Shown here in pieces: positions 313 to 19,679 of a stretch of DNA of 20,000 bases (positions within the stretch are counted from its first letter, which is position 1; every line of letters starts with the position of its first letter). Origin of the DNA: an uncultured virus (IMG/VR IMGVR_UViG_3300025009_000092) (taxonomy: Duplodnaviria > Heunggongvirae > Uroviricota > Caudoviricetes). A program made the translations under genes and the position numbers. The notes beneath the pieces were generated by a model, which ran no database searches, was not told the DNA's origin, and worked only from the letters and a program-made list of their open reading frames with translations. The stretch is taken from IMG/VR virus record IMGVR_UViG_3300025009_000092. One strand, 5' to 3'.

Positions 313-1701
313 TCACCACGTCCCTACTCGTTTTGTATTAGTCAATTCATCAAAGGCATCGGCAGCCGCATCAACCTGATCCTTGAATTTGCCTTCCGGA
401 AAGTTTTCTGCCTCAAGCAAAAATGCTTCATTCCACGCGCCCTGTACCAGTTTTACATTGCCGGCCTGGGCTTGACTGGCCAATGGGGTGGCCCGGGTCT
501 CTTTCGAGCCTGTAACCGGCAATGTCTTTATTGTATAACCGGCCAATTCTTTGACGAAGGCCTTTGCCTGGCTCTTACCGGCCTGACCAGGATCTTGCGG
601 TAATCGAACCGGCACCAACTTACCATCCTGGCTGGCAATATTCTTGATGGAGTCGATTACTTTACTGGCATCAATTTGAAAACGAGTTGAATCTTCGATG
701 TAATAAACCCCGGCAACCTTGGCCATCCTGATCCCAGCGGTATATGCCGGCCCGCCATCTTTCTTCGCCTTTCGGTCTTCCGGATCTCGATCAGTCCCGG
801 CAAGATCCCATGCTCGAACTCTTTTTGCTCCGGCCGGCACTGCACTCACTATTTCAAAATCAGTCCGCTTGAAATAACTGCCGGCGGTTGGTCGTACATT
901 CCAATTCCCCTCAAGAAGCTGCGCCCGTTCAACCCGGGGGAGAGCGTTCAGTTTTGCAAGATAGGTCGGATCTTTCTGGAGGAGAATCTTATTATCATTG
1001 ATCGTTGAACGGATGAAGGTAAAGGAGAGCGGTTGAACGGGCGCATCAGCGGTACTGTATTTGTCGAGTAATTCTTGTTTTGAATCACCCCATATAACTT
1101 CATCGCCAAGAAGAATAAACCAGCGAATTACACCTGATCTACTGGCAATAACAAAACCATCTGGACCAATCCACCAGTCAATGAACTTCCGGACCCATGA
1201 ATCAGGATCAGGATTGCAGGTTCCTCGGATTCGGCCAGGGACACCAGACATGGACCGGTTCCGGGAAAGCATATACGAAAACTGCTTCCAGGTAAAGTGG
1301 CATATCTCATCAAAACCAATCAACGGGATCTGCGACCCTTGCCAGTCCAAGCGATTCTTCTCGTGCTCCATATGGGCAAAACTAATTGCCATCTTGGAGG
1401 GGAATCGGAAACACAATTCATTCTGATTCGGTTTGCCACCAATGGCCGGATACAACTCCGAGGCTTCATCCCACAACCCACCTTCTGAAGTAATCTGTTT
1501 GGTGGTCCGGCGGAAAATGACCGCACCGAATTTGGAATTGTTTACGTGATATAAGGGTTCCAGCAGAAGGGCGAATGATTTTCCCCCTCCGGCCGAACCA
1601 CCATAAAAAACAACATCTGCCCAACACGCAAGAAACTGAGTCTGCGGCCCCTCCTGGGGTTTTATCTCAATTACTTCTTGTTGAGGCATTGCTGCTGTCA
1701 T
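313..1701 (-). CDS. terL: Terminase large subunit
   Basis: PQEGPQ adenine-binding motif, Walker A GGSAGGGKS, Walker B IGFDE, TCNP coupling motif, C-terminal RNase H-like nuclease motifs RAWDLA and KDQVDA. Confidence 0.95.
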   Translation of the reverse strand: MTAAMPQQEVIEIKPQEGPQTQFLACWADVVFYGGSAGGGKSFALLLEPLYHVNNSKFGAVIFRRTTKQITSEGGLWDEASELYPAIGGKPNQNELCFRFPSKMAISFAHMEHEKNRLDWQGSQIPLIGFDEICHFTWKQFSYMLSRNRSMSGVPGRIRGTCNPDPDSWVRKFIDWWIGPDGFVIASRSGVIRWFILLGDEVIWGDSKQELLDKYSTADAPVQPLSFTFIRSTINDNKILLQKDPTYLAKLNALPRVERAQLLEGNWNVRPTAGSYFKRTDFEIVSAVPAGAKRVRAWDLAGTDRDPEDRKAKKDGGPAYTAGIRMAKVAGVYYIEDSTRFQIDASKVIDSIKNIASQDGKLVPVRLPQDPGQAGKSQAKAFVKELAGYTIKTLPVTGSKETRATPLASQAQAGNVKLVQGAWNEAFLLEAENFPEGKFKDQVDAAADAFDELTNTKRVGTW

Positions 1702-2507
1702 CCAACCATTTCCTTCTGGGGGAGTATGATAACCGCAGAACCAATTGGGGTGTCGCCGGTGGTAATATCAATATCCTGGCGGTCATTCCATTGTTCGGCC
1801 TTGGGAAGCGTTTTGGTACGATTCCACAAAAAGAATTTGGCGCTGGCAACATCGGCCGGCATATGTTTCTTTACCAGTTTATGAAGTATGATCTCCCGTA
1901 TAGGATAACCTTCCTCATCCCGGACTATATTACCATCGATATCCTTCTTGAATTCTTGGCGATATTCCTTCTCTTCCAGGTTGTAGCCACATGCCCGATG
2001 ATAAAGGCTTTTCGCCACGTTTGCATTAGCTACTTCACGCCCCTCTATAATGGCATAATTAAATTCGTCATCATCGTCCCGCCATTTATGTAACGTCTCA
2101 ACCTCAATCCCCAACAGCCTGGCCAGCTTCTCATCCGTACAACCCAACAAACAATACGACAAAGCCAATGCCGGATGGGTATCCTTCTTATATATGGGCT
2201 CGACCCCTGCGTGCATCTGTTCTTGTATTGCTTTTATCTGCCTTTGGAGTTCATTTATCTTGTTATATCTCCGGGCGCATTTCCTTTTGACGGTGGAATC
2301 ATTGGGATTTATCTTCAGGAGGGGAGTGGCCTTGATGGGGCCTTTGCCGGCGGGCTTATACTTGAGTGTTGGCTTCTGTATTGTGTTTTGGAGGCCTGGG
2401 GAGGATTGACGAACCATAATTTTGTACTTGTTGAGGTTGATATATATGGAGCGGGATTTCTGGGGTGGAAGATTTCTTGTTAATTTCCTTCCCCTTATAT
2501 TTACCAT
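1698..2507 (-). CDS. terS: Terminase small subunit (true start uncertain, possibly ATG at 2417)
   Basis: Directly upstream of and overlapping terL. HTH segment (LLGCTDEKLARLLGIEVETLHKW), then ANANVAKSLYHRACGY and PADVASAKFFLWNR...W.DR, typical of phage TerS. Confidence 0.85.
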   Translation of the reverse strand: MVNIRGRKLTRNLPPQKSRSIYINLNKYKIMVRQSSPGLQNTIQKPTLKYKPAGKGPIKATPLLKINPNDSTVKRKCARRYNKINELQRQIKAIQEQMHAGVEPIYKKDTHPALALSYCLLGCTDEKLARLLGIEVETLHKWRDDDDEFNYAIIEGREVANANVAKSLYHRACGYNLEEKEYRQEFKKDIDGNIVRDEEGYPIREIILHKLVKKHMPADVASAKFFLWNRTKTLPKAEQWNDRQDIDITTGDTPIGSAVIILPQKEMVG

Positions 2508-2641
2508 ATATATTAGATTTGCGAAGAATCAAAGGAGAATTAATTTTTTATATAATCTTAATAAATGCTTTATGATTATTGAAAAATAGATTATTATGGA
2601 GGTATAAGGCTTCAATATTATCGCTTAAAAGGAGAATAAAA

Positions 2642-3235
2642 ATGAAAAAGAGTTTAGTTGAATTACGAAGGGAATTAAAGCGCAAGTACAAATATGATCC
2701 AGAGACCGGAATATTTACAAGAAGAGACGGAAAGGTCCATGCCAATAGACTGAAAGAAATATATGCCGATAAACCCGAGCGATGGAAAGGGGCTGGTAAA
2801 TTAGTTTTAACCAAAAATGGCTTTGTAATTGACAACCAATATAATGGAGTCTATCTCAGCGGTAAAAGTTATAAAAACAATAGAGCGGCATTTTTATATA
2901 TGAAGGGATACCTTCCAGAAGGTATCGTTGATCATATTGATCAAGTAAAAACAAACGATCGCTGGGATAATCTCCGCGAAGTATCCCATTCATGCAATTT
3001 AAAAAATTCAAAACTCAGCAAAAAAAACAAAACTGGGGTGAAGGGGGTTTTCTATTCAGAAAAGGAAAAAAAATTCATTGTAAATATATCAGGGAATAAC
3101 AAAAACATCCGCCTCGGGAGTTTCAAAACCCTTTTGGAGGCTGCTGAGGCTCGGCATAAAGCAGAAATCGAATTTGGTTATCCAAATTGTGAAATGAATT
3201 CAACGGCTTTGCAATACATCAAAAAACACGAATAA
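2642..3235 (+). CDS. HNH homing endonuclease with C-terminal AP2-like domain
   Basis: AAGGAG RBS before ATG 2642; YDPETGIF, VDHIDQVKTNDRWDNLR...N (HNH), NKTGVKGV...RLGSFKTLLEAAEAR (AP2-like); AT-rich relative to its neighbours. Confidence 0.9.
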   Translation: MKKSLVELRRELKRKYKYDPETGIFTRRDGKVHANRLKEIYADKPERWKGAGKLVLTKNGFVIDNQYNGVYLSGKSYKNNRAAFLYMKGYLPEGIVDHIDQVKTNDRWDNLREVSHSCNLKNSKLSKKNKTGVKGVFYSEKEKKFIVNISGNNKNIRLGSFKTLLEAAEARHKAEIEFGYPNCEMNSTALQYIKKHE

Positions 3236-3259
3236 TTTATTAAGATTTTAGTTTTTTTC

Positions 3260-3288
3260 TTGACATCCTGTACAGGGCATATTATTAT
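3260..3288 (+). promoter_or_regulatory. Sigma70-type early promoter with a palindrome in the spacer
   Basis: TTGACA (3260-3265), 17-nt spacer, TATTAT (3283-3288), T-rich upstream tract; the spacer contains the perfect palindrome CCTGTACAGG (3267-3276). Confidence 0.8.
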
Positions 3289-3388
3289 AAGACATAAGAT
3301 AAAGATTGAGAGGGAAAGGGGGAGGTTAATCGAGAACCCGATAGGCGGGGATGGTCCAGTTGAGGAGCGCCCCACCAGGAAGCGGATA

Positions 3389-3442
3389 TAGTGTCTTTGA
3401 TTGTTTGATCAGACTGACGAGCCCATTCAGGGCGAAACACTA
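3389..3442 (+). ncRNA. Hammerhead ribozyme, type III
   Basis: Stem III TAGTGT/ACACTA; cleavage triplet GTC (cut after 3395); stem I TTTGATT-GTTT-GATCAGA; core CTGACGA (3414-3420); stem II GCCC-ATTCA-GGGC; GAAA (3434-3437). Confidence 0.92.
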
Positions 3443-3458
3443 AATGAGGAGATTGGCC

Positions 3459-3716
3459 ATGAAGAAATGTTTATCCGATGCATTGGCTATCGACGAGTTG
3501 CGAGTAACACTGGAAAACATATCACATGATGATGATAGGGATATGGAAGATTATAGTAGGGAAGAACTGGTAGCGGAGGCTAATTATGTTCTTTCTTGCT
3601 ATTTTGAAGGTGGGCATATGTCAAATGATGAATTGAATTCAGATGATGGCGAAATCAGATCAAGCGCTAAAAAACAGGTAAAAATGTTACAAAATTATAT
3701 TAAAAAATATAGTTAA
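3459..3716 (+). CDS. Hypothetical acidic early protein (85 aa)
   Basis: GAGGAG RBS at 3446-3451 and ATG at 3459; first ORF after the early promoter and hammerhead. Confidence 0.75.
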   Translation: MKKCLSDALAIDELRVTLENISHDDDRDMEDYSREELVAEANYVLSCYFEGGHMSNDELNSDDGEIRSSAKKQVKMLQNYIKKYS

Positions 3717-3764
3717 ATAACAACCCCCAACCGAGCCCGGCGGAATCCGGCATTGGAGGATGGT

Positions 3765-3935
3765 ATGAAATTGGAAATAGTCAAATATGGGGACGAAAGA
3801 AATATCATCGTTAAATCCTGGAAAGAGGTAAAAGAACATTTACAAAGAACAAATCTCCCTCACTGCTTTGTTCTTTCTGAGATCAAAGGCCATAACTGCT
3901 CATTAACCAAAACTGGAAGATTACAAAGAGATTAA
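3765..3935 (+). CDS. Hypothetical early protein (56 aa)
   Basis: GGAGGA RBS at 3755-3760 and ATG at 3765. Confidence 0.65.
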   Translation: MKLEIVKYGDERNIIVKSWKEVKEHLQRTNLPHCFVLSEIKGHNCSLTKTGRLQRD

Positions 3936-4004
3936 CCACTTCGAAACCGGCTCCGGCCGGTCATCCAGGGTTCGGCTCCTGGGTCTGATGAGATAGCCGG
4001 TTAA
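3932..4004 (+). ncRNA. Hammerhead ribozyme, type II, with loop I/3'-tail pseudoknot
   Basis: GAAA 3943-3946; stem III ACCGGC-TCCG-GCCGGT; GTC triplet (cut after 3962); stem I ATCCAGG/CCTGGGT; core CTGATGA 3985-3991; open stem II TC/GA extended by TTAACC/GGTTAA; loop I CGGCT (3973-3977) is complementary to AGCCG (3995-3999). Confidence 0.92.
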
Positions 4005-4024
4005 CCAAATCAAAGGAGAATGTC

Positions 4025-4255
4025 ATGAATATCGAACGGGTATATCTTTGCAACGAAGCATTCGGGACTGTAAAAAAGCAGGTTCATGCTTGGATTGATG
4101 GTCAATTCTATCGGATTTTTGGCGAGGGAGATAAAAGGGAAATAAGAAAAGTCATCTCCGCAACAAAACAGCCAAAATTAACCGGAAAGAAATTGATCAA
4201 TAAAATTTTAGCCGCAGTCGATAGCAAACCCCTTCCTCCTGTTGCATGGTTTTGA
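4025..4255 (+). CDS. Hypothetical basic early protein (76 aa)
   Basis: AAGGAG RBS immediately after the second hammerhead; ATG at 4025. Confidence 0.75.
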   Translation: MNIERVYLCNEAFGTVKKQVHAWIDGQFYRIFGEGDKREIRKVISATKQPKLTGKKLINKILAAVDSKPLPPVAWF

Positions 4256-4276
4256 ACTTTAAAATAAGGACTCCCC

Positions 4277-4705
4277 ATGACCAGAATCAATATAGTCCCA
4301 CCCGCCGAGCTTTGCGACCAACAGCTTATAGCTGAATGGCGCGAGCTAACCAGAATCCCCAATGGTATTGTTGCCGGGAAGTATGTAATTGATTTGGAGC
4401 AGATCCCCAAACAATACACCGTCAGGACTGAAGATAATCCGGATGGCGGCAAAGGGCATATGAAATTCTTCTTCAATAAGTTAAAATTCCTGTATCGCCG
4501 GTATGAAGCAATCAGGGATGAGCTTGCCCAGCGGGGAATGCCGAGGCGGAGTATGTGGCCTGTTGGTGAATTTATGGTCTGGCCCACGATTGATAATATT
4601 CTTTGGAACGATTACGAGCCGACCCCGGAAGCAATGACCCTGAACAGAAAACGGATTGCGGAGAAGTTCCCCAAGAAACCAAGATATGCAAGGGAAAGGT
4701 TATGA
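4277..4705 (+). CDS. denV: Pyrimidine-dimer DNA glycosylase / T4 endonuclease V family
   Basis: MTRINIVPPAELCDQQLIAEWRELTRI matches the EndoV N-terminus (catalytic Thr2 and Glu23 region); G.GHMKFFFNKLKFL..RY..I..EL..RG. Confidence 0.93.
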   Translation: MTRINIVPPAELCDQQLIAEWRELTRIPNGIVAGKYVIDLEQIPKQYTVRTEDNPDGGKGHMKFFFNKLKFLYRRYEAIRDELAQRGMPRRSMWPVGEFMVWPTIDNILWNDYEPTPEAMTLNRKRIAEKFPKKPRYARERL

Positions 4706-4914
4706 AGAAATATCCACCGGCCTGGAACTTAACGGCAATCGAACTTGAACTAGCCATTCTGCGTGGGCTTCCGGCCACAGACCTAGTTGAGCATTGGGAG
4801 CGGCTGCAGAAAATCCAAGCCGATCTAGCCCATTTGTTTAAATCAGTTACTTATCAACGGGCCGTAAATTTAGCGGCTCAATCCGATATTATTGAGGAGG
4901 AAAATCATGAGTAA
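4702..4914 (+). CDS. Hypothetical protein (70 aa)
   Basis: ATGA overlap with the denV stop and a GAAAGG RBS; start reassigned from 4603 to 4702. Confidence 0.65.
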   Translation: MKKYPPAWNLTAIELELAILRGLPATDLVEHWERLQKIQADLAHLFKSVTYQRAVNLAAQSDIIEEENHE

Positions 4915-5050
4915 TCGAGCAGGTTTTTGGTTTATGGTTGGATTCATTCTTGTTATAATAATTTCCTTCATCACCTATGCCCCGGAAATTATGGGAGTCA
5001 AACAGAAACTCGAAAACAAGGCGGTGGGATATGGTCAGCTCAATTATTAA
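4907..5050 (+). CDS. Small membrane protein (47 aa, MSNRAGFWFMVGFILVIIISFITYAPEI...), not in the ORF track
   Basis: GAGGAGG RBS, ATG 4907, TAA 5048-5050; one hydrophobic segment. Confidence 0.7.
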   Translation: MSNRAGFWFMVGFILVIIISFITYAPEIMGVKQKLENKAVGYGQLNY

Positions 5051-5150
5051 GATCGTTGTCGCCATCCTGTTTCTGATTCTTTTTGGAATAGCCGGGGAAA
5101 TGGATTATCAGGACCATGTTTCCCGGCAAGAACCAACAACCCAGTATTAG
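5031..5150 (+). CDS. Small membrane protein (39 aa, MVSSIIKIVVAILFLILFGIAGEMDYQDH...), not in the ORF track
   Basis: ATG 5031 to TAG 5150 fills the gap before the sigma-factor RBS; hydrophobic stretch followed by G.MDYQD. Confidence 0.6.
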   Translation: MVSSIIKIVVAILFLILFGIAGEMDYQDHVSRQEPTTQY

Positions 5151-5159
5151 GAGATTGAA

Positions 5160-5675
5160 ATGACCCCCAATCACACCAACCAGCTCGTTGAAAAACATAT
5201 TTCCCAAGTAAACAAACTCGCCTGGTCCTTTGCCAAAACAACTGGTCATGAATTTGATGACCTCAAGTCGGAAGGAACTATTGCAATGCTGAGGGCAATC
5301 AAGAAATTCAATCCAGATCATGGTTGCGAATTATCCACCTTAATTCATACCACCTGCCGGAATGCCATGGTTCAGTATTTGAAAACCCAGGGGAAGAAGT
5401 TCCCGGCAACGAATGAGGAAGTTGATGTAGCGGATCATAGGCCGAGTGGTCACCAGCGATATGAATTTCTTGAATCCCTCTCTTCCCTTGGGGCCGAGGC
5501 AAAACAGGTATTGCGGATCATTTTCGAGTCACCAAAGGAAATGACCAATATCACAGCGGGAAATTCTGCCGGCAATATCCGGAAGACCATTGAACGGACC
5601 ATGCGGGATATGGGATTCAAGGGCCGGGGGATCGAGCGGGCGTTTAATCAAATCAGATCAACTTTTCAGAATTAA
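5160..5675 (+). CDS. Phage-encoded sigma70-family sigma factor (region 2 recognisable)
   Basis: FDDLKSEGTIAMLRAIKKFNPDHGCELSTLIHTTCRNAM resembles the region 2 consensus (DL.QEG.IGL..A..KFDP..G..FSTYA...IR); AGGAG RBS. Confidence 0.82.
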   Translation: MTPNHTNQLVEKHISQVNKLAWSFAKTTGHEFDDLKSEGTIAMLRAIKKFNPDHGCELSTLIHTTCRNAMVQYLKTQGKKFPATNEEVDVADHRPSGHQRYEFLESLSSLGAEAKQVLRIIFESPKEMTNITAGNSAGNIRKTIERTMRDMGFKGRGIERAFNQIRSTFQN

Positions 5676-5684
5676 GGTGGGGAT

Positions 5685-5891
5685 ATGGCAAAGCAAACCA
5701 AGGAAGAAAAGGTCATTGAATTTTTAAAATCAAGGGGACTTGTCGAGATCCTGCCTTCCAAATCCAGGAAATATCGACAATTTAAAAAGGCGGACGATTC
5801 GGTATATTCCTATTGGGTTGGCAGAAAAGGTGCCTGCAGAAAAGGAAAAGTTTCATCCCAGTCAATCCCCATAACCTTGACCTTATTGTAA
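5685..5891 (+). CDS. Hypothetical basic protein (68 aa)
   Basis: AAGGTGG RBS; its stop overlaps the helicase start. Confidence 0.7.
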   Translation: MAKQTKEEKVIEFLKSRGLVEILPSKSRKYRQFKKADDSVYSYWVGRKGACRKGKVSSQSIPITLTLL

Positions 5892-14202: not shown

Positions 14203-15735
14203 ATGAGTTCCCAATTCATCGAACGCCGCATTGCCATCGGCCTCATTACCAACGACCAATACCTGCGGGAAATAGCCCCCGTATTTAATGCCGATCTCCT
14301 CAAGGATGAAGCGGCAAAAAAGATTGCCTCCTGGTGCATCCGCTATTTCAATAAGCACGGAAAAGCACCCCTGGAAGATATCGGGATCATCTTCGAATCA
14401 TATACCAGGAGGGGGAAACTCAATCAGGAAGAATCGGAGGATATTGGTAGCATCCTTGACGACCTCAGTGATGAATATCAAACCCAGGCCGAGAACAACC
14501 CGGAGGTCCTGATTGACGAAACTTTCGCATACTTCGATGAAAACAGGCTAGTTCGCCTGGCGGATGATATCAAGGCCGAGGCCCAGCGGGGGAACCTGTT
14601 AGAGGCCAATGTACTGCTTGCTACTAATAAGCAAATTCAACGGGCGGTAAATATAAACCATGACTTCTTCGCCGATGATATTACCAGGACGCAAAAAATA
14701 TTTGAAGACATCCAGGAGCCAATTGTCGAATACCCTGGTAAGCTCGGGCAACTCTGGAACCGGCATTTCGTTCGTGGAGGTTTTGTTGGATTACTCGGCC
14801 CTGAAAAAACTGGAAAAACATGGTGGCTGGCAGACATTGGATTCCAGGCCCAACGAACCGGTAAAAAAGTAGCCTTCTTTGCGGCCGGGGATATGAACCG
14901 GGAGGAAATGGAACTCCGGAAATATATCTATATGGCCAGGAAATCCAACGAACTTGAATATTGCGGGCAATTGATGATCCCGGTGGTTGATTGTTTCTGG
15001 AATCAGAATGGTCAATGTCCGGCTGGTTGCGGTGAATCGCCAATCCGGGGAGATAAACCACCGGCCTTCAAGGATCTCCAACAAGTTTATAGCGATGCTT
15101 TTGAACAATATGGAAGTGACCATACCCCATGCACCAAATGCCAGGGCAAAAAAGAATTCCTAGGTGCCCCATGGTTCAAGCTCCGAGATAAAATAGTCCC
15201 CCTGAACTGGAAAGAGGCATATAATATTGAGCGAAAATTCCAAAAACGATTTCGTGGGGCTGGTTGGAACTTTGCCGATTATCCGGCTTATACCCTCAGT
15301 CCGAAAATGATTGATAATCAATTGGCCATCTGGCACGAAGGCGGCTTTACAGCCGATGTTGTGTTGATTGATTATCCGGATATCATGGCCCCAGACCTGG
15401 AAGACCAGCGAATGGATTTCCGGCAGAAAGAGAATATGAAGTGGTTGAAGATCCGGGCGTTGGCCCATAAGTGGCATTGCCTCGTTGTTTGCCCTACACA
15501 AGCCGATGGAGCCAGTTATGGCAAGGACTGGCTGGATCTCTCCAACTACAGCGAGGATAAGCGAAAGTACAGCCATACAACGGCCTTCTTTGGTCTCAAT
15601 CAAACCGATGGGGAAGCCGAGTTGGGGCTATTCAGGATTAATCAATTAATTGTTCGAAGTGGAAAGCGAGGAAAGAAGTATGCAACTATTTGCCAGCGGC
15701 TCGAAATGGGTCGGCCATTTCTAGGATCATATTAA
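14203..15735 (+). CDS. DnaB-like (SF4) replicative helicase with a Cys-rich insert
   Basis: Helical N-terminal domain (IERRIAIGLITNDQYL), Walker A GPEKTGKT, VLIDYPD (Walker B), VVCPTQ, late Arg motif IVRSG. Confidence 0.8.
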   Translation: MSSQFIERRIAIGLITNDQYLREIAPVFNADLLKDEAAKKIASWCIRYFNKHGKAPLEDIGIIFESYTRRGKLNQEESEDIGSILDDLSDEYQTQAENNPEVLIDETFAYFDENRLVRLADDIKAEAQRGNLLEANVLLATNKQIQRAVNINHDFFADDITRTQKIFEDIQEPIVEYPGKLGQLWNRHFVRGGFVGLLGPEKTGKTWWLADIGFQAQRTGKKVAFFAAGDMNREEMELRKYIYMARKSNELEYCGQLMIPVVDCFWNQNGQCPAGCGESPIRGDKPPAFKDLQQVYSDAFEQYGSDHTPCTKCQGKKEFLGAPWFKLRDKIVPLNWKEAYNIERKFQKRFRGAGWNFADYPAYTLSPKMIDNQLAIWHEGGFTADVVLIDYPDIMAPDLEDQRMDFRQKENMKWLKIRALAHKWHCLVVCPTQADGASYGKDWLDLSNYSEDKRKYSHTTAFFGLNQTDGEAELGLFRINQLIVRSGKRGKKYATICQRLEMGRPFLGSY

Positions 15736-15746
15736 AAGGAGAGGAT

Positions 15747-16121
15747 ATGTCAATCACAGTAACCAAGAAGTTTAGTTTTTGTTATGCTCACCACTTGCCG
15801 GAGTATGATGGAGACTGCTCCCGTGTTCATGGCCACAATAGTGCCGTTGAGGTCGAATTCACCAATGAGTATGGTCAGCTGCCAAGACCATATCCGGGCA
15901 TGGTAGTCGACTTCAAGGATATCAAGAAAATTGTCGGGCCGATTATTGATCAGCTTGATCATCGGTATTTGAATGATATTCTTGACCCCTTTAATCCCAC
16001 CGCCGAGACCATTGCAAATTGGATTGCCGGCCGGATAATGGAGACCCCACTTGGTCCGGGATTGATCAGGGTGCAGGTTTCGGAAACTGACGATTCTTTT
16101 GCCACCTGGAGAAAAGCATGA
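15747..16121 (+). CDS. queD: 6-carboxy-5,6,7,8-tetrahydropterin synthase
   Basis: FCYAHHL, CSRVHGHN, MVVDF, LDHRYLN, PTAE, VSET; AAGGAG RBS with ATG 15747. Confidence 0.95.
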   Translation: MSITVTKKFSFCYAHHLPEYDGDCSRVHGHNSAVEVEFTNEYGQLPRPYPGMVVDFKDIKKIVGPIIDQLDHRYLNDILDPFNPTAETIANWIAGRIMETPLGPGLIRVQVSETDDSFATWRKA

Positions 16122-16774
16122 AAACGAAGATTAATATCATGTCAATTTTCTTTTCAATCTCCGGAGAGGTCAATATCTGGCCGCAAGGAGCCCCGACCAT
16201 ATTCATTCGTTTTGCTGGTTGCAATTTGGCTTGCCACTATTGCGATACCAAACAATCAATCAATGCTGCCGGTACCCAGATGACTGTCGAAGAAATAGTC
16301 GAGCAGGTCAAATCTTTTGATTGTCAGCGGGTTTTGATCACCGGCGGGGAACCCCTATTACAAAAGAATGGTCTACAGGCATTAATCAGAGAACTTGATA
16401 TCCAGGGATATGTGACTAGTGTTGAAACAAATGGATCTCTTCCCCTGGATATCCTTCCTGAGCATCCGGATTGCTGGGTGGTCGATATCAAGATGCCGGG
16501 GAGTGGATATTTTGATTCTATGATCCTGCCGGAAAAACACCTGGAAGATGCCGAAGTCTGGGATAATTTGATTTTCAAATTCCCAATTGAGAATGAACGA
16601 GACTTCCAAACCGCGGCCGATATTATAAAGGATCTGAGCGAACACGCGGCCGGATTCGCTCTTTCCCCGATTTCCCCCTTGACTGCAATTGAATTATGGG
16701 GATGGATGGTCAGAGCCGGATTGACTCATTGTATCCTAAATACCCAGATTCATAAGTTTTTAAAATTAGAATAG
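16118..16774 (+). CDS. queE: 7-carboxy-7-deazaguanine synthase (radical SAM)
   Basis: IFFSISGE, FIRFAGCNLACHYCDT (CX3CX2C), ITGGEP, VETNG, QIHK. Confidence 0.95.
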   Translation: MKTKINIMSIFFSISGEVNIWPQGAPTIFIRFAGCNLACHYCDTKQSINAAGTQMTVEEIVEQVKSFDCQRVLITGGEPLLQKNGLQALIRELDIQGYVTSVETNGSLPLDILPEHPDCWVVDIKMPGSGYFDSMILPEKHLEDAEVWDNLIFKFPIENERDFQTAADIIKDLSEHAAGFALSPISPLTAIELWGWMVRAGLTHCILNTQIHKFLKLE

Positions 16775-16802
16775 ACTGCCGGCAGAATTATTTTGCCGGA
16801 AT

Positions 16803-16853
16803 GTAAAATATTTCCGTAGAAAATCATTCGAAAACAGTATAATAGGATAGAAG
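16803..16853 (+). promoter_or_regulatory. Repeated phage promoter-like motif, copy 2
   Basis: GTAAAATA...AGAAAA...GAAAACAGTATAATAGGATAGAAG, matching 11088-11137; preceded by the hairpin CCGGCAGAA/TTTTGCCGG (16779-16799). Confidence 0.75.
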
Positions 16854-16915
16854 ATAAAAATGGTCAGTGTGATCATTTGCCAGGATTTCCAAACCAAGAA
16901 TAAAGGAGAATTGCC

Positions 16916-17719
16916 ATGAGTGAACCCAAACGCCCCGAATTGATTGCTGCCGCAAAGGAATTGAACACCCTGCTGGACCCCGATCCCAAGATCAAGACGG
17001 TCGGCGTAAAGACTGATGAATTGACCAAGGCTATTGTGGTAGCGGCCGGCCTGCTCGATAAGGGGGATTCCCTGACGACCGAAACCCACGCCGTCCTCTG
17101 CGCCCTGGAAGTTGAGTTACCGGAAGGCCTGGTCATTGCCGCTGCCGATGCGGATGATGAAAATGGCGATAATGCCCAGGAAGAGAAAAAGCCCGAGCCG
17201 GCAATTGAGCGGGAAGACCTGGTTGCCCTGATCGAAGAAATGAACAAGGTCATGGATCTGGACCCGGCAATCGAAGCCAGTGAGAAATCAAGCATCGACG
17301 GTCTCAAGAAACTGATCCATGATAATTGCTACGATAAGGGCGAGTGCCAGGTCTTTGATACCGACAAATTCAGCCCCGAAGCATGGGAAACCTTGACGGT
17401 CCTGGGTGTCCGGCCGGTAGTTACCAAGAAGGCCAAGGATAAGCCGGCAAAAGCCGAGAAGGCAGAAAAGCCCGCCAAGGCCGGAAAAGCGGAGAAGGCT
17501 GAGAAGCCGGCAAAGGCCAAGAAAGAGAAAAAGGAAAAATCCCCCGGCACCCCTTCCAATAAGCGGATTGTTTATGACCTCTTTGCGGCCGGCGAGAAGG
17601 ATCAGGCAAAAATGCTGAAAGCCACGAATGATGCTGTATCCGCCACGACCATCAAGATTTGGATCTCCATGTGGGCCAAGGGTAAAAACCTGCCGGCAGG
17701 TATCAAAGCCGCCGAATGA
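16916..17719 (+). CDS. Hypothetical protein: duplicated acidic domain, Lys/Ala-rich (histone H1-like) repeats, small C-terminal domain
   Basis: AAAGGAG RBS; KPAKAEKAEKPAKAGKAEKAEKPAKAKK; two similar N-terminal units. Confidence 0.8.
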   Translation: MSEPKRPELIAAAKELNTLLDPDPKIKTVGVKTDELTKAIVVAAGLLDKGDSLTTETHAVLCALEVELPEGLVIAAADADDENGDNAQEEKKPEPAIEREDLVALIEEMNKVMDLDPAIEASEKSSIDGLKKLIHDNCYDKGECQVFDTDKFSPEAWETLTVLGVRPVVTKKAKDKPAKAEKAEKPAKAGKAEKAEKPAKAKKEKKEKSPGTPSNKRIVYDLFAAGEKDQAKMLKATNDAVSATTIKIWISMWAKGKNLPAGIKAAE

Positions 17720-18123
17720 AACGAATAGCCTTCATAGGTTGTTCAAAGAGGAAGAAAACCTCCCCCTGCCAGGCAAAGGACCTGTATCAGGGGGAGTTGT
17801 TTAAAAAATCTCTTCGTTATTGCCAACAAGAAAAATTCGACGAAATATATATTCTGTCTGCCAAATATGGATTGGTCTTTTTACAAGATATCATCCAGCC
17901 GTACGAAAAAACCCTGAATACATTTACAGAAGACGAAAAGAAAAATTGGTCCGATAAAGTAAAACAACAAATTTTAGAAAAGAATATTTCCGGGGAATTT
18001 TGGTTCTTTTGCGGAAGCAATTACCATAAACATTTTGAAGGTGAAAAACCTTTATTTGGTTTATCCCTTGGATATCAATTAAACTGGTTCAATCAAAAAT
18101 TAAAAAAGGGGTTCAATCTATGA
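17716..18123 (+). CDS. DUF6884-like protein
   Basis: IGCSKRK.....AKDLY.G.LF....Y......YILSAKYGL.....I.PYE.TL; AT-rich; coupled to both neighbours. Confidence 0.75.
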   Translation: MKRIAFIGCSKRKKTSPCQAKDLYQGELFKKSLRYCQQEKFDEIYILSAKYGLVFLQDIIQPYEKTLNTFTEDEKKNWSDKVKQQILEKNISGEFWFFCGSNYHKHFEGEKPLFGLSLGYQLNWFNQKLKKGFNL

Positions 18124-18782
18124 AAATCGTCTTATCGCTATCCGGCGGGATGGATTCCGCCGCCCTGCTCGGGACCCTGCTCGGGACTGGCCATGAAGTT
18201 TTTGCCGTCTCTTTCTTCTATGGTTCCAAGCACAATCAGTATGAATTGGAAGCCGCCCGGAAGCTGACCGAGCATTATGGTATAAAGCGGCAGTCAATGG
18301 ATATCTCCGGGATCTTCGCCGGGTTCAAGTCGGCCCTGCTGAAAGAGGATTCCCGGTCGATCCCGGAAGGTCATTATGAAGACCGTACTATGGTACAAAC
18401 GGTCGTACCTGGGCGGAATATGATCTTCTCGGCTATCCTTGCGGGGTTGGCCCAATCATTCGAGTACGACGCGGTAGCGCTCGGTATCCATGCAGGGGAT
18501 CATACCATCTATCCGGATTGCCGGCCAGTCTTCAAAGAAAGCATGGATCTGGCCATTAAAACCGCTTCTGAGTATTCGGTTTCCTTGTATGCCCCTTTCC
18601 TGGGAATGAGCAAGGGAGATATCGTCAAGGTCGGGATGGAGCACAAAGTTCCTTTTAAATTGACCCGCACCTGTTATAAGGATCAGTCTTTGTCTTGTGG
18701 AAAATGTGGATCATGTACCGAAAGATTGGAAGCATTCGCCGAGAATGGCCTGGTTGATCCGATTCAGTATGCGGTAAAGTAA
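18120..18782 (+). CDS. queC: 7-cyano-7-deazaguanine (preQ0) synthase
   Basis: SLSGGMDS PP-loop, VPGRNMIF, YPDCR, TRTCY...CGKCGSC.ER zinc site. Confidence 0.96.
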   Translation: MKIVLSLSGGMDSAALLGTLLGTGHEVFAVSFFYGSKHNQYELEAARKLTEHYGIKRQSMDISGIFAGFKSALLKEDSRSIPEGHYEDRTMVQTVVPGRNMIFSAILAGLAQSFEYDAVALGIHAGDHTIYPDCRPVFKESMDLAIKTASEYSVSLYAPFLGMSKGDIVKVGMEHKVPFKLTRTCYKDQSLSCGKCGSCTERLEAFAENGLVDPIQYAVK

Positions 18783-18794
18783 ATAGGAGGCTCC

Positions 18795-19679
18795 GTGAAA
18801 AGAATTATTACAAATGAAGAAGTAGAACTTGCTTGCCTGCCAATAATAAAATCAATCCCAAAAGATGAACTAGGGTTTGGTGGGCCGAGTTTTTATGGTG
18901 TGCCGCGCGGAGGAATTGCCCCTGCATATATGCTGGCCGGATTAACCGATGGTTCCGTAGCGGATCATCCTAAAAAAGCCGACTATATTATTGATGACCT
19001 GATTGATTCCGGCAGTACCCGAGATCGATACGCCAAACTCTATCCCGACACTCCATTCATTACTCTTTTTGAAAAAACCGATCCGATGGAATGGCTGGTC
19101 TTCCCCTGGGAAGTTACCGAGCAGGGCCATGACACCTCTGCGGAAGATATCCCATCTCGTTTTTTAGAATTTATCGGAGAGGATTTAAATCGGGATGGAT
19201 TAAAAGAAACTCCAAAACGAATGATTAAAGCCTGGAAAGAAATTTTCAGCGGATATGAACAAAATCCATCTGATGTTATAAAAACTTTCGAATCAGATGG
19301 ATATGATCAAATAGTCCTTTTACGGGATATTGAATTATATTCCATGTGCGAACATCACGCATTACCATTTGTAGGCCGGGCACATGTCGCATATATTCCT
19401 GGAGGCAAGGTTATCGGTATTTCAAAGCTCGCAAGACTGATTGATATCTTTTCCAAAAGATTACAAATTCAAGAAAGAATAGGAGATCAGGTGACCTCAA
19501 TTCTCATGAATGAATTGAATGCCCAGGGAGCCGCCTGCATAATTGAAGCAGATCATTTCTGTATCAGAATGAGGGGCGTCGGAAAGCAGCATTCTACTAT
19601 GGTAACCTCTTCAATGAAAGGCGTATTTTTAACTAAGCCTGAAGCAAGATCCGAGTTATTGAGTTTGATCCGGTCATGA
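18795..19679 (+). CDS. folE: Fusion of a type I (Gpt-like) phosphoribosyltransferase domain and GTP cyclohydrolase I
   Basis: N-terminus: YGVPRGG, IIDDLIDSGST (PRPP loop), WLVFPWE. C-terminus: RDGLKETPKR, SMCEHHALPF.G, GISKLAR, LQIQER, HFCIRMRG. AGGAGG RBS with GTG start. Confidence 0.93.
   Translation: MKRIITNEEVELACLPIIKSIPKDELGFGGPSFYGVPRGGIAPAYMLAGLTDGSVADHPKKADYIIDDLIDSGSTRDRYAKLYPDTPFITLFEKTDPMEWLVFPWEVTEQGHDTSAEDIPSRFLEFIGEDLNRDGLKETPKRMIKAWKEIFSGYEQNPSDVIKTFESDGYDQIVLLRDIELYSMCEHHALPFVGRAHVAYIPGGKVIGISKLARLIDIFSKRLQIQERIGDQVTSILMNELNAQGAACIIEADHFCIRMRGVGKQHSTMVTSSMKGVFLTKPEARSELLSLIRS

Follow-up and report, generated by a model that had tools for sequence, protein, structure and literature searches.

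What do self-cleaving hammerhead ribozymes do in phages? A 2019 review calls the roles of bacterial and phage hammerheads 'largely elusive' (PMC6765202). The question is raised again by a 20,000-nucleotide (nt) stretch of DNA that is part of an uncultured tailed phage (IMG/VR record IMGVR_UViG_3300025009_000092; the whole stretch is called the window below). Here two hammerheads of different types lie 551 nt apart, both on the plus strand and after one promoter. The original prediction was that they cut the early transcript into a discrete RNA of 567 nt with two small genes, and that this piece might be closed into a circle. We found that related phages keep the same two ribozymes and carry unrelated genes between them. 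To judge from these sequences, the ribozymes probably (we put the chance at about 60%) form fixed frames that process or insulate the early genes swapped between them.

The two hammerheads are the following features.

3388-3443, plus strand: type III hammerhead (HH3); Rfam RF00008 Hammerhead_3, 41.7 bits; predicted cut after C3395.

3939-4002, plus strand: type II hammerhead (HHII); Rfam RF02276 Hammerhead_II, 44.5 bits against a gathering score of 37; predicted cut after C3962.

Both ribozymes have a complete core. The core of HH3 consists of CUGACGA (3414-3420), GAA (3434-3436), the A15.1-U16.1 pair (3437/3394) and a GUC ending at C3395. Stem III of HH3 is UAGUGU/ACACUA, the cleavage site GUC/U is at 3393-3395/3396, stem I occupies 3396-3413, and stem II (GCCC/GGGC) is followed by GAAA. 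The pairs G3421-C3433, U3396-A3413 and A3437-U3394 agree with the core and pair rules of Perreault et al. 2011, which permit the C present at N7. The minimum-energy fold of HH3 is the hammerhead fold (z -2.06), and its counterparts in relatives score 37.7-43.5 bits with RF00008. HHII matches its model over the full length (1-66; E 2.4e-6), with GAA at 3943-3945, the pair A3946-U3961, a GUC ending at C3962 and CUGAUGA at 3985-3991. Its stem III and stem I are hairpins (3946-3961 and 3963-3984) on either side of the cleavage site GUC/A (3960-3962/3963), and stem II is short and open (C3942-G3992, U3941-A3993). A possible 5-bp pseudoknot, read by eye, joins CGGCU of loop I (3973-3977) to AGCCG of the tail (3995-3999). 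It fits the type II consensus, which in the description of PMC3088659 has a short stem II and a pseudoknot between loop I and the 3' tail. Because the four lineages with HHII are identical at these bases, they offer no covariation for the pseudoknot. The 3' tail AGCCGGUU (3995-4002) is complementary to loop I and also to the 5' strand of stem III, AACCGGCU (3945-3952).

Since both cores are complete and have GUC sites at C3395 and C3962, the cuts are placed at 3395/3396 and 3962/3963. The piece between them, 3396-3962, is 567 nt long. A scan of the window with Rfam gave nothing credible beyond HH3 and HHII. E-values near 1e-6, together with an HHII that is 98-100% identical where the flanking genes are 86-90% identical, place the matches beyond chance. 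Rfam matches, complete cores and gene positions thus bear out the claim that two hammerhead cuts enclose exactly two small open reading frames (ORFs) with their ribosome-binding sites (RBSs). The other features of the locus are listed below.

3260-3288, plus strand: sigma-70-type promoter, TTGACA-17 nt-TATTAT; 11 of 12 consensus matches, the best site within 2400-5800.

3295-3387, plus strand: purine-rich leader of about 100 nt, conserved between the promoter and HH3, with a hairpin at about 3344-3376.

3446-3451 and 3459-3716, plus strand: RBS GAGGAG and ORF1 (85 aa, acidic, without family).

3713-3764 (matched to 3770), plus strand: intergenic module of a hairpin and an RBS, directly before ORF2.

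3755-3760 and 3765-3935, plus strand: RBS GGAGGA and ORF2 (56 aa, orphan).

4014-4018 and 4025-4255, plus strand: linker with RBS AGGAG, and ORF3 (76 aa), the first gene of the predicted downstream cleavage product.

Do related phages keep this arrangement? Relatives were collected with a protein search for the DenV-like gene product, which gave seven loci in viral contigs, and with DNA patterns of HHII, the leader and HH3, which gave 5, 6 and 9 contigs, respectively. Scanning metagenome contigs for a 20-mer of HH3 gave 14 stretches, and seven of them belong to this phage group. The other seven are chance matches: they lie in unrelated sequence, have no hammerhead around them and do not match Rfam. 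Six distinct lineages carry HH3: the window; L005 and L035; L011 and L037; L004, L023, L039 and L040; L024, L022 and L033; L028 and L038. HHII is present as well in four of the six, and the cut-to-cut distance is 567 nt in the window, 631 nt in L004, 828 nt in L005 and 519 nt in L011. A blastn search of 3200-4300 against 50,697 phage records gave no match. Scans of genome contigs with a degenerate leader pattern and with a 26-mer of HHII both gave 0 matches; thus, neither a prophage copy nor a host was found.

Using blastn with 2401-5800, we compared the window with its relatives. The block from the promoter through the leader and HH3 to the RBS (ending at 3461-3468) is 89-95% identical (leader with HH3, 90-95%). 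The HHII block (from 3933 or 3940 to 4003) is 98-100% identical in L004, L005, L011 and L039. From the DenV-like gene or later genes on, the flanking genes are 86-90% identical. The sequence between the conserved blocks had no match in the relatives. Comparison of 47 ORFs of at least 40 aa from the six lineages (blastp, E<=1e-4) gave the same picture: no two of the four lineages that have both ribozymes share a cargo ORF, and ORF1, ORF2 and ORF3 of the window match none of the compared ORFs. The only sharing is between one ORF of L004 and one of L028 (59%), and between the ORFs that follow HHII in L004 and L005 (85%). It turned out that the breakpoints lie at the start of ORF1 (3452-3468), between the stop of ORF2 and the start of HHII (3933-3940), and just after the RBS linked to HHII (4003-4027). 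In contigs from landfill (X5), freshwater (X6) and wastewater (X12), similarity is limited to 3259-3462 and/or 3933-4027, and unlike sequence follows; the match in contigs from other habitats extends to 4019-4027 before it diverges. Of the sequencing runs listed for this stretch, none is recorded as RNA; two runs bear the label RNA-Seq, of which X11 gave no contig and X12 gave two short ones and is marked 'probably DNA'. Thus, the suggested check on whether the cargo varies among related phages came out positive, with the same two ribozymes around four unrelated cargo sets (519-828 nt cut to cut). The locus shows what defined the clustered hammerheads of 2011: at least two on one strand of a phage transcript, placed around single genes or short gene blocks that are not constant.

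Variation also continues downstream of HHII. ORF3 and the DenV-like gene (4025-4705) are variable too, and L004 and L005 have another ORF of 117-123 aa after HHII. In the landfill contig X5 and in L011, HHII is directly followed by a homologue of the gene at 4702-4914.

The ribozymes themselves vary little, and in a particular way. When HH3 of the six lineages is aligned, pairing is preserved throughout stems I and II and at the five inner positions of stem III, but not at its outermost pair. The changes in HH3 helices are one-sided (U-G to C-G or U-A). Other substitutions fall in loops, namely at 3404 in loop I of HH3, in the stem III loop of HHII in L011, and at 3970 in loop I of HHII. Changes that fall in loops or keep pairs, with HHII more conserved than the neighbouring genes, are the pattern expected under selection on RNA structure.

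What, then, would the two ribozymes do for the phage? A transcript starting near 3295, the start point that the promoter predicts, would cut itself twice during synthesis. Cleavage by HH3 would free the leader of about 100 nt as a separate RNA with a 2',3'-cyclic phosphate at C3395. Cleavage by HHII would part the two-gene piece 3396-3962 from the downstream message, which carries ORF3, the DenV-like gene, a sigma factor gene and others. At the front of the excised piece, a 5'-OH would precede the hairpins of HH3 stems I and II; at its 3' end, the GC-rich hairpin of HHII stem III would lead up to a 2',3'-cyclic phosphate. The hairpin of HHII stem I would open the downstream message. Acting in this way, the ribozymes would be protein-free processing sites and insulators that make the stability and translation of each early gene independent of its neighbours. 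The small early genes would be exchanged between the frames, probably by homologous recombination.

We favour self-processing or insulation because the changes fit a selected RNA structure, because an RBS for the following gene is fused to each ribozyme, and because the predicted products carry hairpins at their ends. Self-processing of the early transcript into a discrete two-gene piece is plausible and the most economical reading of the sequence, supported by the strong promoter at 3260-3288, the intact cores and the result that no terminator-like site was found on the plus strand within 2400-5800. The anatomical part of the original prediction stands, and from the sequence we infer cleavage in vivo, as well as a stabilising or insulating effect. 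Related phages differ at the frames of ribozyme and RBS, and so the frames appear to act as fixed junctions for gene exchange, where recombination would take place.

Several observations weigh against this reading. HH3 scores below the Rfam gathering score (41.7 against 48.5 bits), with an E-value of 3.5e-6 on the 20-kb window and of 1.3e-7 on 751 nt. In a plain minimum-energy fold, HHII on its own prefers pairing of its tail with the 5' strand of stem III over the hammerhead; the pairing could be an inactive conformer, or a means for the cleavage products to stay annealed. Because the helix changes are one-sided, neither ribozyme has compensatory proof. HHII was not found downstream of HH3 within 2.5 kb in the L024 lineage and within 1.1 kb in the L028 lineage. 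Where the host has RNase J, a 5'-OH end may make a message less stable instead of protecting it, as the precedent of glmS shows. The lineage of L004, L023, L039 and L040 has the HH3 core CUGGCGA (L004 1909-1915), that is, the change A6G, and so departs from the HH3 core rule of Perreault et al. 2011. Changes at A6 are described as reducing hammerhead activity (PMC3088659), and this HH3 looks like a natural slow or dead variant. In the same lineage, a U-to-C change in stem I of HH3 turns a U-G pair into a C-G pair. HHII is intact in L004, L039 and L040 (L023 ends about 0.1 kb downstream of HH3). Since this lineage keeps the rest of the module, efficient cleavage by HH3 may not be required. The last point concerns the leader, which stands directly upstream of HH3 in all six aligned lineages, including the two without HHII.

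The position of the leader raises the possibility that the conserved unit is the leader with HH3 and not the pair of ribozymes, with HHII as an independent, optional second site. HH3 would then give the leader a precise 3' end, setting it free as a small RNA of the phage; alternatively, the leader would be a sensor that gates HH3 cleavage. We consider this explanation unlikely. It arises because the leader goes with HH3 in every lineage and because its hairpin of 11 pairs has two compensatory pairs (G-C to A-U and C-G to U-A, RNAalifold). The leader is near-identical in L004, L005 and L011 and about 80% identical in L024 and L028, and the compensatory pairs appear across these groups. Regulated cleavage has also been raised for phage hammerheads in the text of PMC3088659. 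But the basis is six sequences and two compensatory pairs, and the single-sequence fold of the leader is no more stable than shuffled sequences (z -0.64). In a search of 3280-4030 at E<=10, Rfam gave nothing credible for the leader or for the hairpin and RBS module (weak rows for a snoRNA and for PreQ1 are chance), and no ligand or target can be named. Moreover, the A6G lineage keeps the leader although cleavage there is probably slowed. The leader could be a small RNA set free by cleavage, or it could regulate HH3.

It is also conceivable, though quite improbable, that the ribozymes do little as catalysts. They would be hitch-hiking or relic sequence, or would serve chiefly as DNA homology patches for recombination, and any processing would be inconsequential. 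In line with this, a lineage seen on four contigs has the A6G core variant fixed, and HHII is missing from two lineages. In L003, L007 and L008 neither ribozyme is present and the whole region is missing; in L003 the DenV-like gene comes directly after the promoter region. Some clustered hammerheads are possibly non-functional, according to the discussion in PMC3088659. Yet mere patches of homology would not explain why HHII is 98-100% conserved against 86-90% for the neighbouring protein genes, with substitutions in loops or pair-keeping, as for a selected RNA structure.

Closure of the excised 567-nt RNA by a host RtcB-type ligase into a circular, translatable mRNA with two genes, as first proposed, is not supported and must be regarded as highly improbable. 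The 5'-OH and 2',3'-cyclic phosphate ends of hammerhead products do suit RtcB. In the predicted minimum-energy fold of the window piece, nt 1-15 pair with nt 535-550, which adjoin the 3' hairpin, and the ends would abut. Between the first 40 and the last 40 nt, 11.7 pairs are expected, as compared to 2.1 +/- 3.1 in a set of 60 random fragments of 567 nt (3% of the set attain the window's value), and the pieces of L004 and L005 have 10.7 and 8.7 expected end pairs. However, the register of the pairing differs among lineages, and L011 has 3.7. Complementarity of the 5' 20 nt to the 30 cargo-specific nt before HHII is unremarkable in three of the four lineages (P 0.66, 0.51 and 0.81; 0.014 in L011), and the end-to-end duplex of the window is no better than a third of random pairs. 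Because complementarity to the cargo-specific segment is mostly at chance level, the idea of a closing stem that is conserved and specific to the cargo was rejected. The two ends come from different hammerheads and would share one stem II pair only, and so religation catalysed by the ribozymes is not expected. RtcB (PF01139) has no match in the 27-kb record G001 (26,966 bp, 41% complete, identical to the window over 3200-4300), which was used for searches of the whole record. Lineages with a weakened HH3 or without HHII also exist, and the pair is thus not obligatory. Circular or spliced products of such arrangements were sought, and the text of PMC3088659 says that none were detected (data not shown there). 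Neither of the two marks of a ribozyme-made circular RNA, a conserved terminal helix or one rebuilt ribozyme, was found. A chimeric hammerhead formed from the ends of the piece, or from the leader and the downstream fragment, that would religate or splice out the cargo was rejected, because the joined forms have no proper stem II or no GAAA/stem III half. A more specific form of closure is barely conceivable: the remnant halves would anneal (UUUGA of the HH3 product with the UCGAA(A) remnant of the HHII product), the ends would adjoin, and host RtcB would close a circular, exonuclease-proof and translatable mRNA. If this were true, the frames of ribozyme and RBS would be a natural plug-in system that makes circular messages from any early gene recombined between them.

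How does self-processing at fixed frames, the reading that we prefer, compare with known systems? In T7 early mRNA, host RNase III cuts double-stranded sites between genes and leaves 5'-phosphate and 3'-OH ends. As in T7, a polycistronic early phage transcript would be cut between genes into discrete messages ending in protective hairpins; unlike in T7, the cuts would be made by the RNA itself, and the ends would be 5'-OH and 2',3'-cyclic phosphate. RiboJ, reportedly described by Lou et al. in 2012, is said to be an engineered hammerhead insulator between a promoter and an RBS. The likeness here is a hammerhead between promoter and RBS that would remove the 5' leader and leave a hairpin before the RBS, so that expression would be freed of the upstream context. 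In contrast to RiboJ, the leader of the window is conserved and not variable, and a second ribozyme follows the genes. In the Tornado design, ribozyme-made ends are joined into a circular RNA. Ribozyme-derived circular RNAs are also described for viroid-like agents and retrozymes (Cervera & de la Pena 2020, PMC7229834). With all of these the locus shares cuts at both ends, which would give 5'-OH and 2',3'-cyclic phosphate ends that an RtcB-type ligase could join. There the ends come from copies of one ribozyme or from a designed or conserved stem, whereas here two different hammerheads are present with no conserved closing stem, and the RNA is a coding phage message.

The closest precedent is the report that hammerheads in prophages flank genes that are not constant, for which processing of long transcripts and spliced or circular products were proposed (Perreault et al. 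2011, PMC3088659). The arrangement, the variable genes and both hypotheses are therefore already in print in that paper. According to its text, three tandem hammerhead arrangements were tested; all cleaved in vitro, and one cleaved in E. coli. In D. vulgaris, three type II hammerheads near phage-like genes are described as self-cleaving in vivo (PMC8782182). Like the prophage clusters of PMC3088659, the locus in the window has hammerheads of mixed type on one strand that flank small, non-constant genes. Unlike the clusters as described there, it opens an early operon: it comes right after the promoter, and a structured leader that is conserved precedes it. Further differences from that description are the replacement of cargo among close relatives at near-identical frames, the A6G lineage, and a module of hairpin and RBS that is not a ribozyme.

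Another precedent concerns the exchange of genes. In hyperplastic regions of T4-type phages, PeSL cassettes consist of a conserved early promoter and a terminator stem-loop between small, non-essential early ORFans (Arbiol et al. 2010, PMC2839356); insertions, deletions and replacements that set close relatives apart map to them. As there, short conserved motifs stand at the junctions of variable small early ORFs, and the differences between relatives map to them. Unlike PeSLs, which in the account of PMC2839356 act at the level of DNA and transcription, the frames of the window consist of self-cleaving RNA or, for the third module, of a hairpin joined to an RBS. The promoter stands in the first module only, and no terminator-like site was found on the plus strand within 2400-5800. 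The likeness is thus one of function alone: as junctions for gene exchange, the frames may follow the same logic as PeSL cassettes.

The third kind of frame, the intergenic module of hairpin and RBS, recurs in L004, L005 (twice), L011, L024 and L028 with 86-89% identity (blastn), each time before a different small ORF. Its copies in relatives have the stem GCCCGG/CCGGGC and the loop CGGAAU fused to the RBS AGGAGGA, and the window copy has a weaker stem. Copies lie at 2266-2311 in L004 and at 2113-2168 and 2791-2826 in L005. A scan of viral contigs gave eight stretches on six contigs, all of this phage group. Of the genes in the window between and after the ribozymes, ORF1 is taken to start at ATG 3459 and not at ATG 3444, because diverged relatives keep the second ATG without the upstream one. 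ORF1 has two clusters of homologues (67% identity). PHROGs and Pfam gave no match for it, and Atlas gave low-confidence helical look-alikes only, with no functional lead. ORF2 has no PHROG or Pfam family and no homologue candidate, and ORF3 has no match in PHROGs or Pfam.

Gene assignments in the window were made with PHROGs and Pfam. The genes of the large and small terminase subunits (313-2507, minus strand) are divergent from the early and replication operon. A free-standing HNH endonuclease gene (2579-3235, plus strand) is followed on the same strand by the long operon, which contains small ORFs and genes for a DenV-type pyrimidine-dimer glycosylase, a sigma factor, an SNF2 helicase, a primase, a replication initiator and loader, ThyX, a DnaB-like helicase, and a QueD/QueE/QueC/FolE set. 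Relatives have promoter-like sequence at the position equivalent to 3260-3288. The HNH gene is present in the window and L005 and missing from L004, L011 and L039, where its flanks are contiguous. In the window it is flanked by 32-nt inverted copies (2551-2582 and 3219-3250; 78% complementary) of an AT-rich near-palindromic motif. This suggests that the HNH gene is a mobile homing-endonuclease insertion adjoining the variable region. An exact 14-nt repeat, AATCAAAGGAGAAT, occurs at 2527-2540 in the intergenic region between the terminase and HNH genes and at 4008-4021 in the linker that carries the RBS downstream of HHII; it could be due to chance or be one more sign that modules are reused. 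At 15690-19679 lie genes for QueD-like, QueE-like, DUF6884, QueC-like and GTP cyclohydrolase I proteins and a 267-aa ORF without assignment (16916-17719). This gene set points to 7-deazaguanine synthesis, probably for DNA modification.

The function of bacterial and phage hammerheads has been a question since their discovery in 2011, and this locus gives no answer to it. Since the phage is uncultured, tests are confined to heterologous systems. What the locus does give is a compact natural series: the same two frames with four cargo sets, a lineage with A6G, lineages with HH3 only, and relatives without the region. With such a series one could ask directly whether the level, stability or independence of the framed genes is set by cleavage. 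The locus suggests, in addition, that the frames of ribozyme and RBS double as junctions where these phages swap small early genes.

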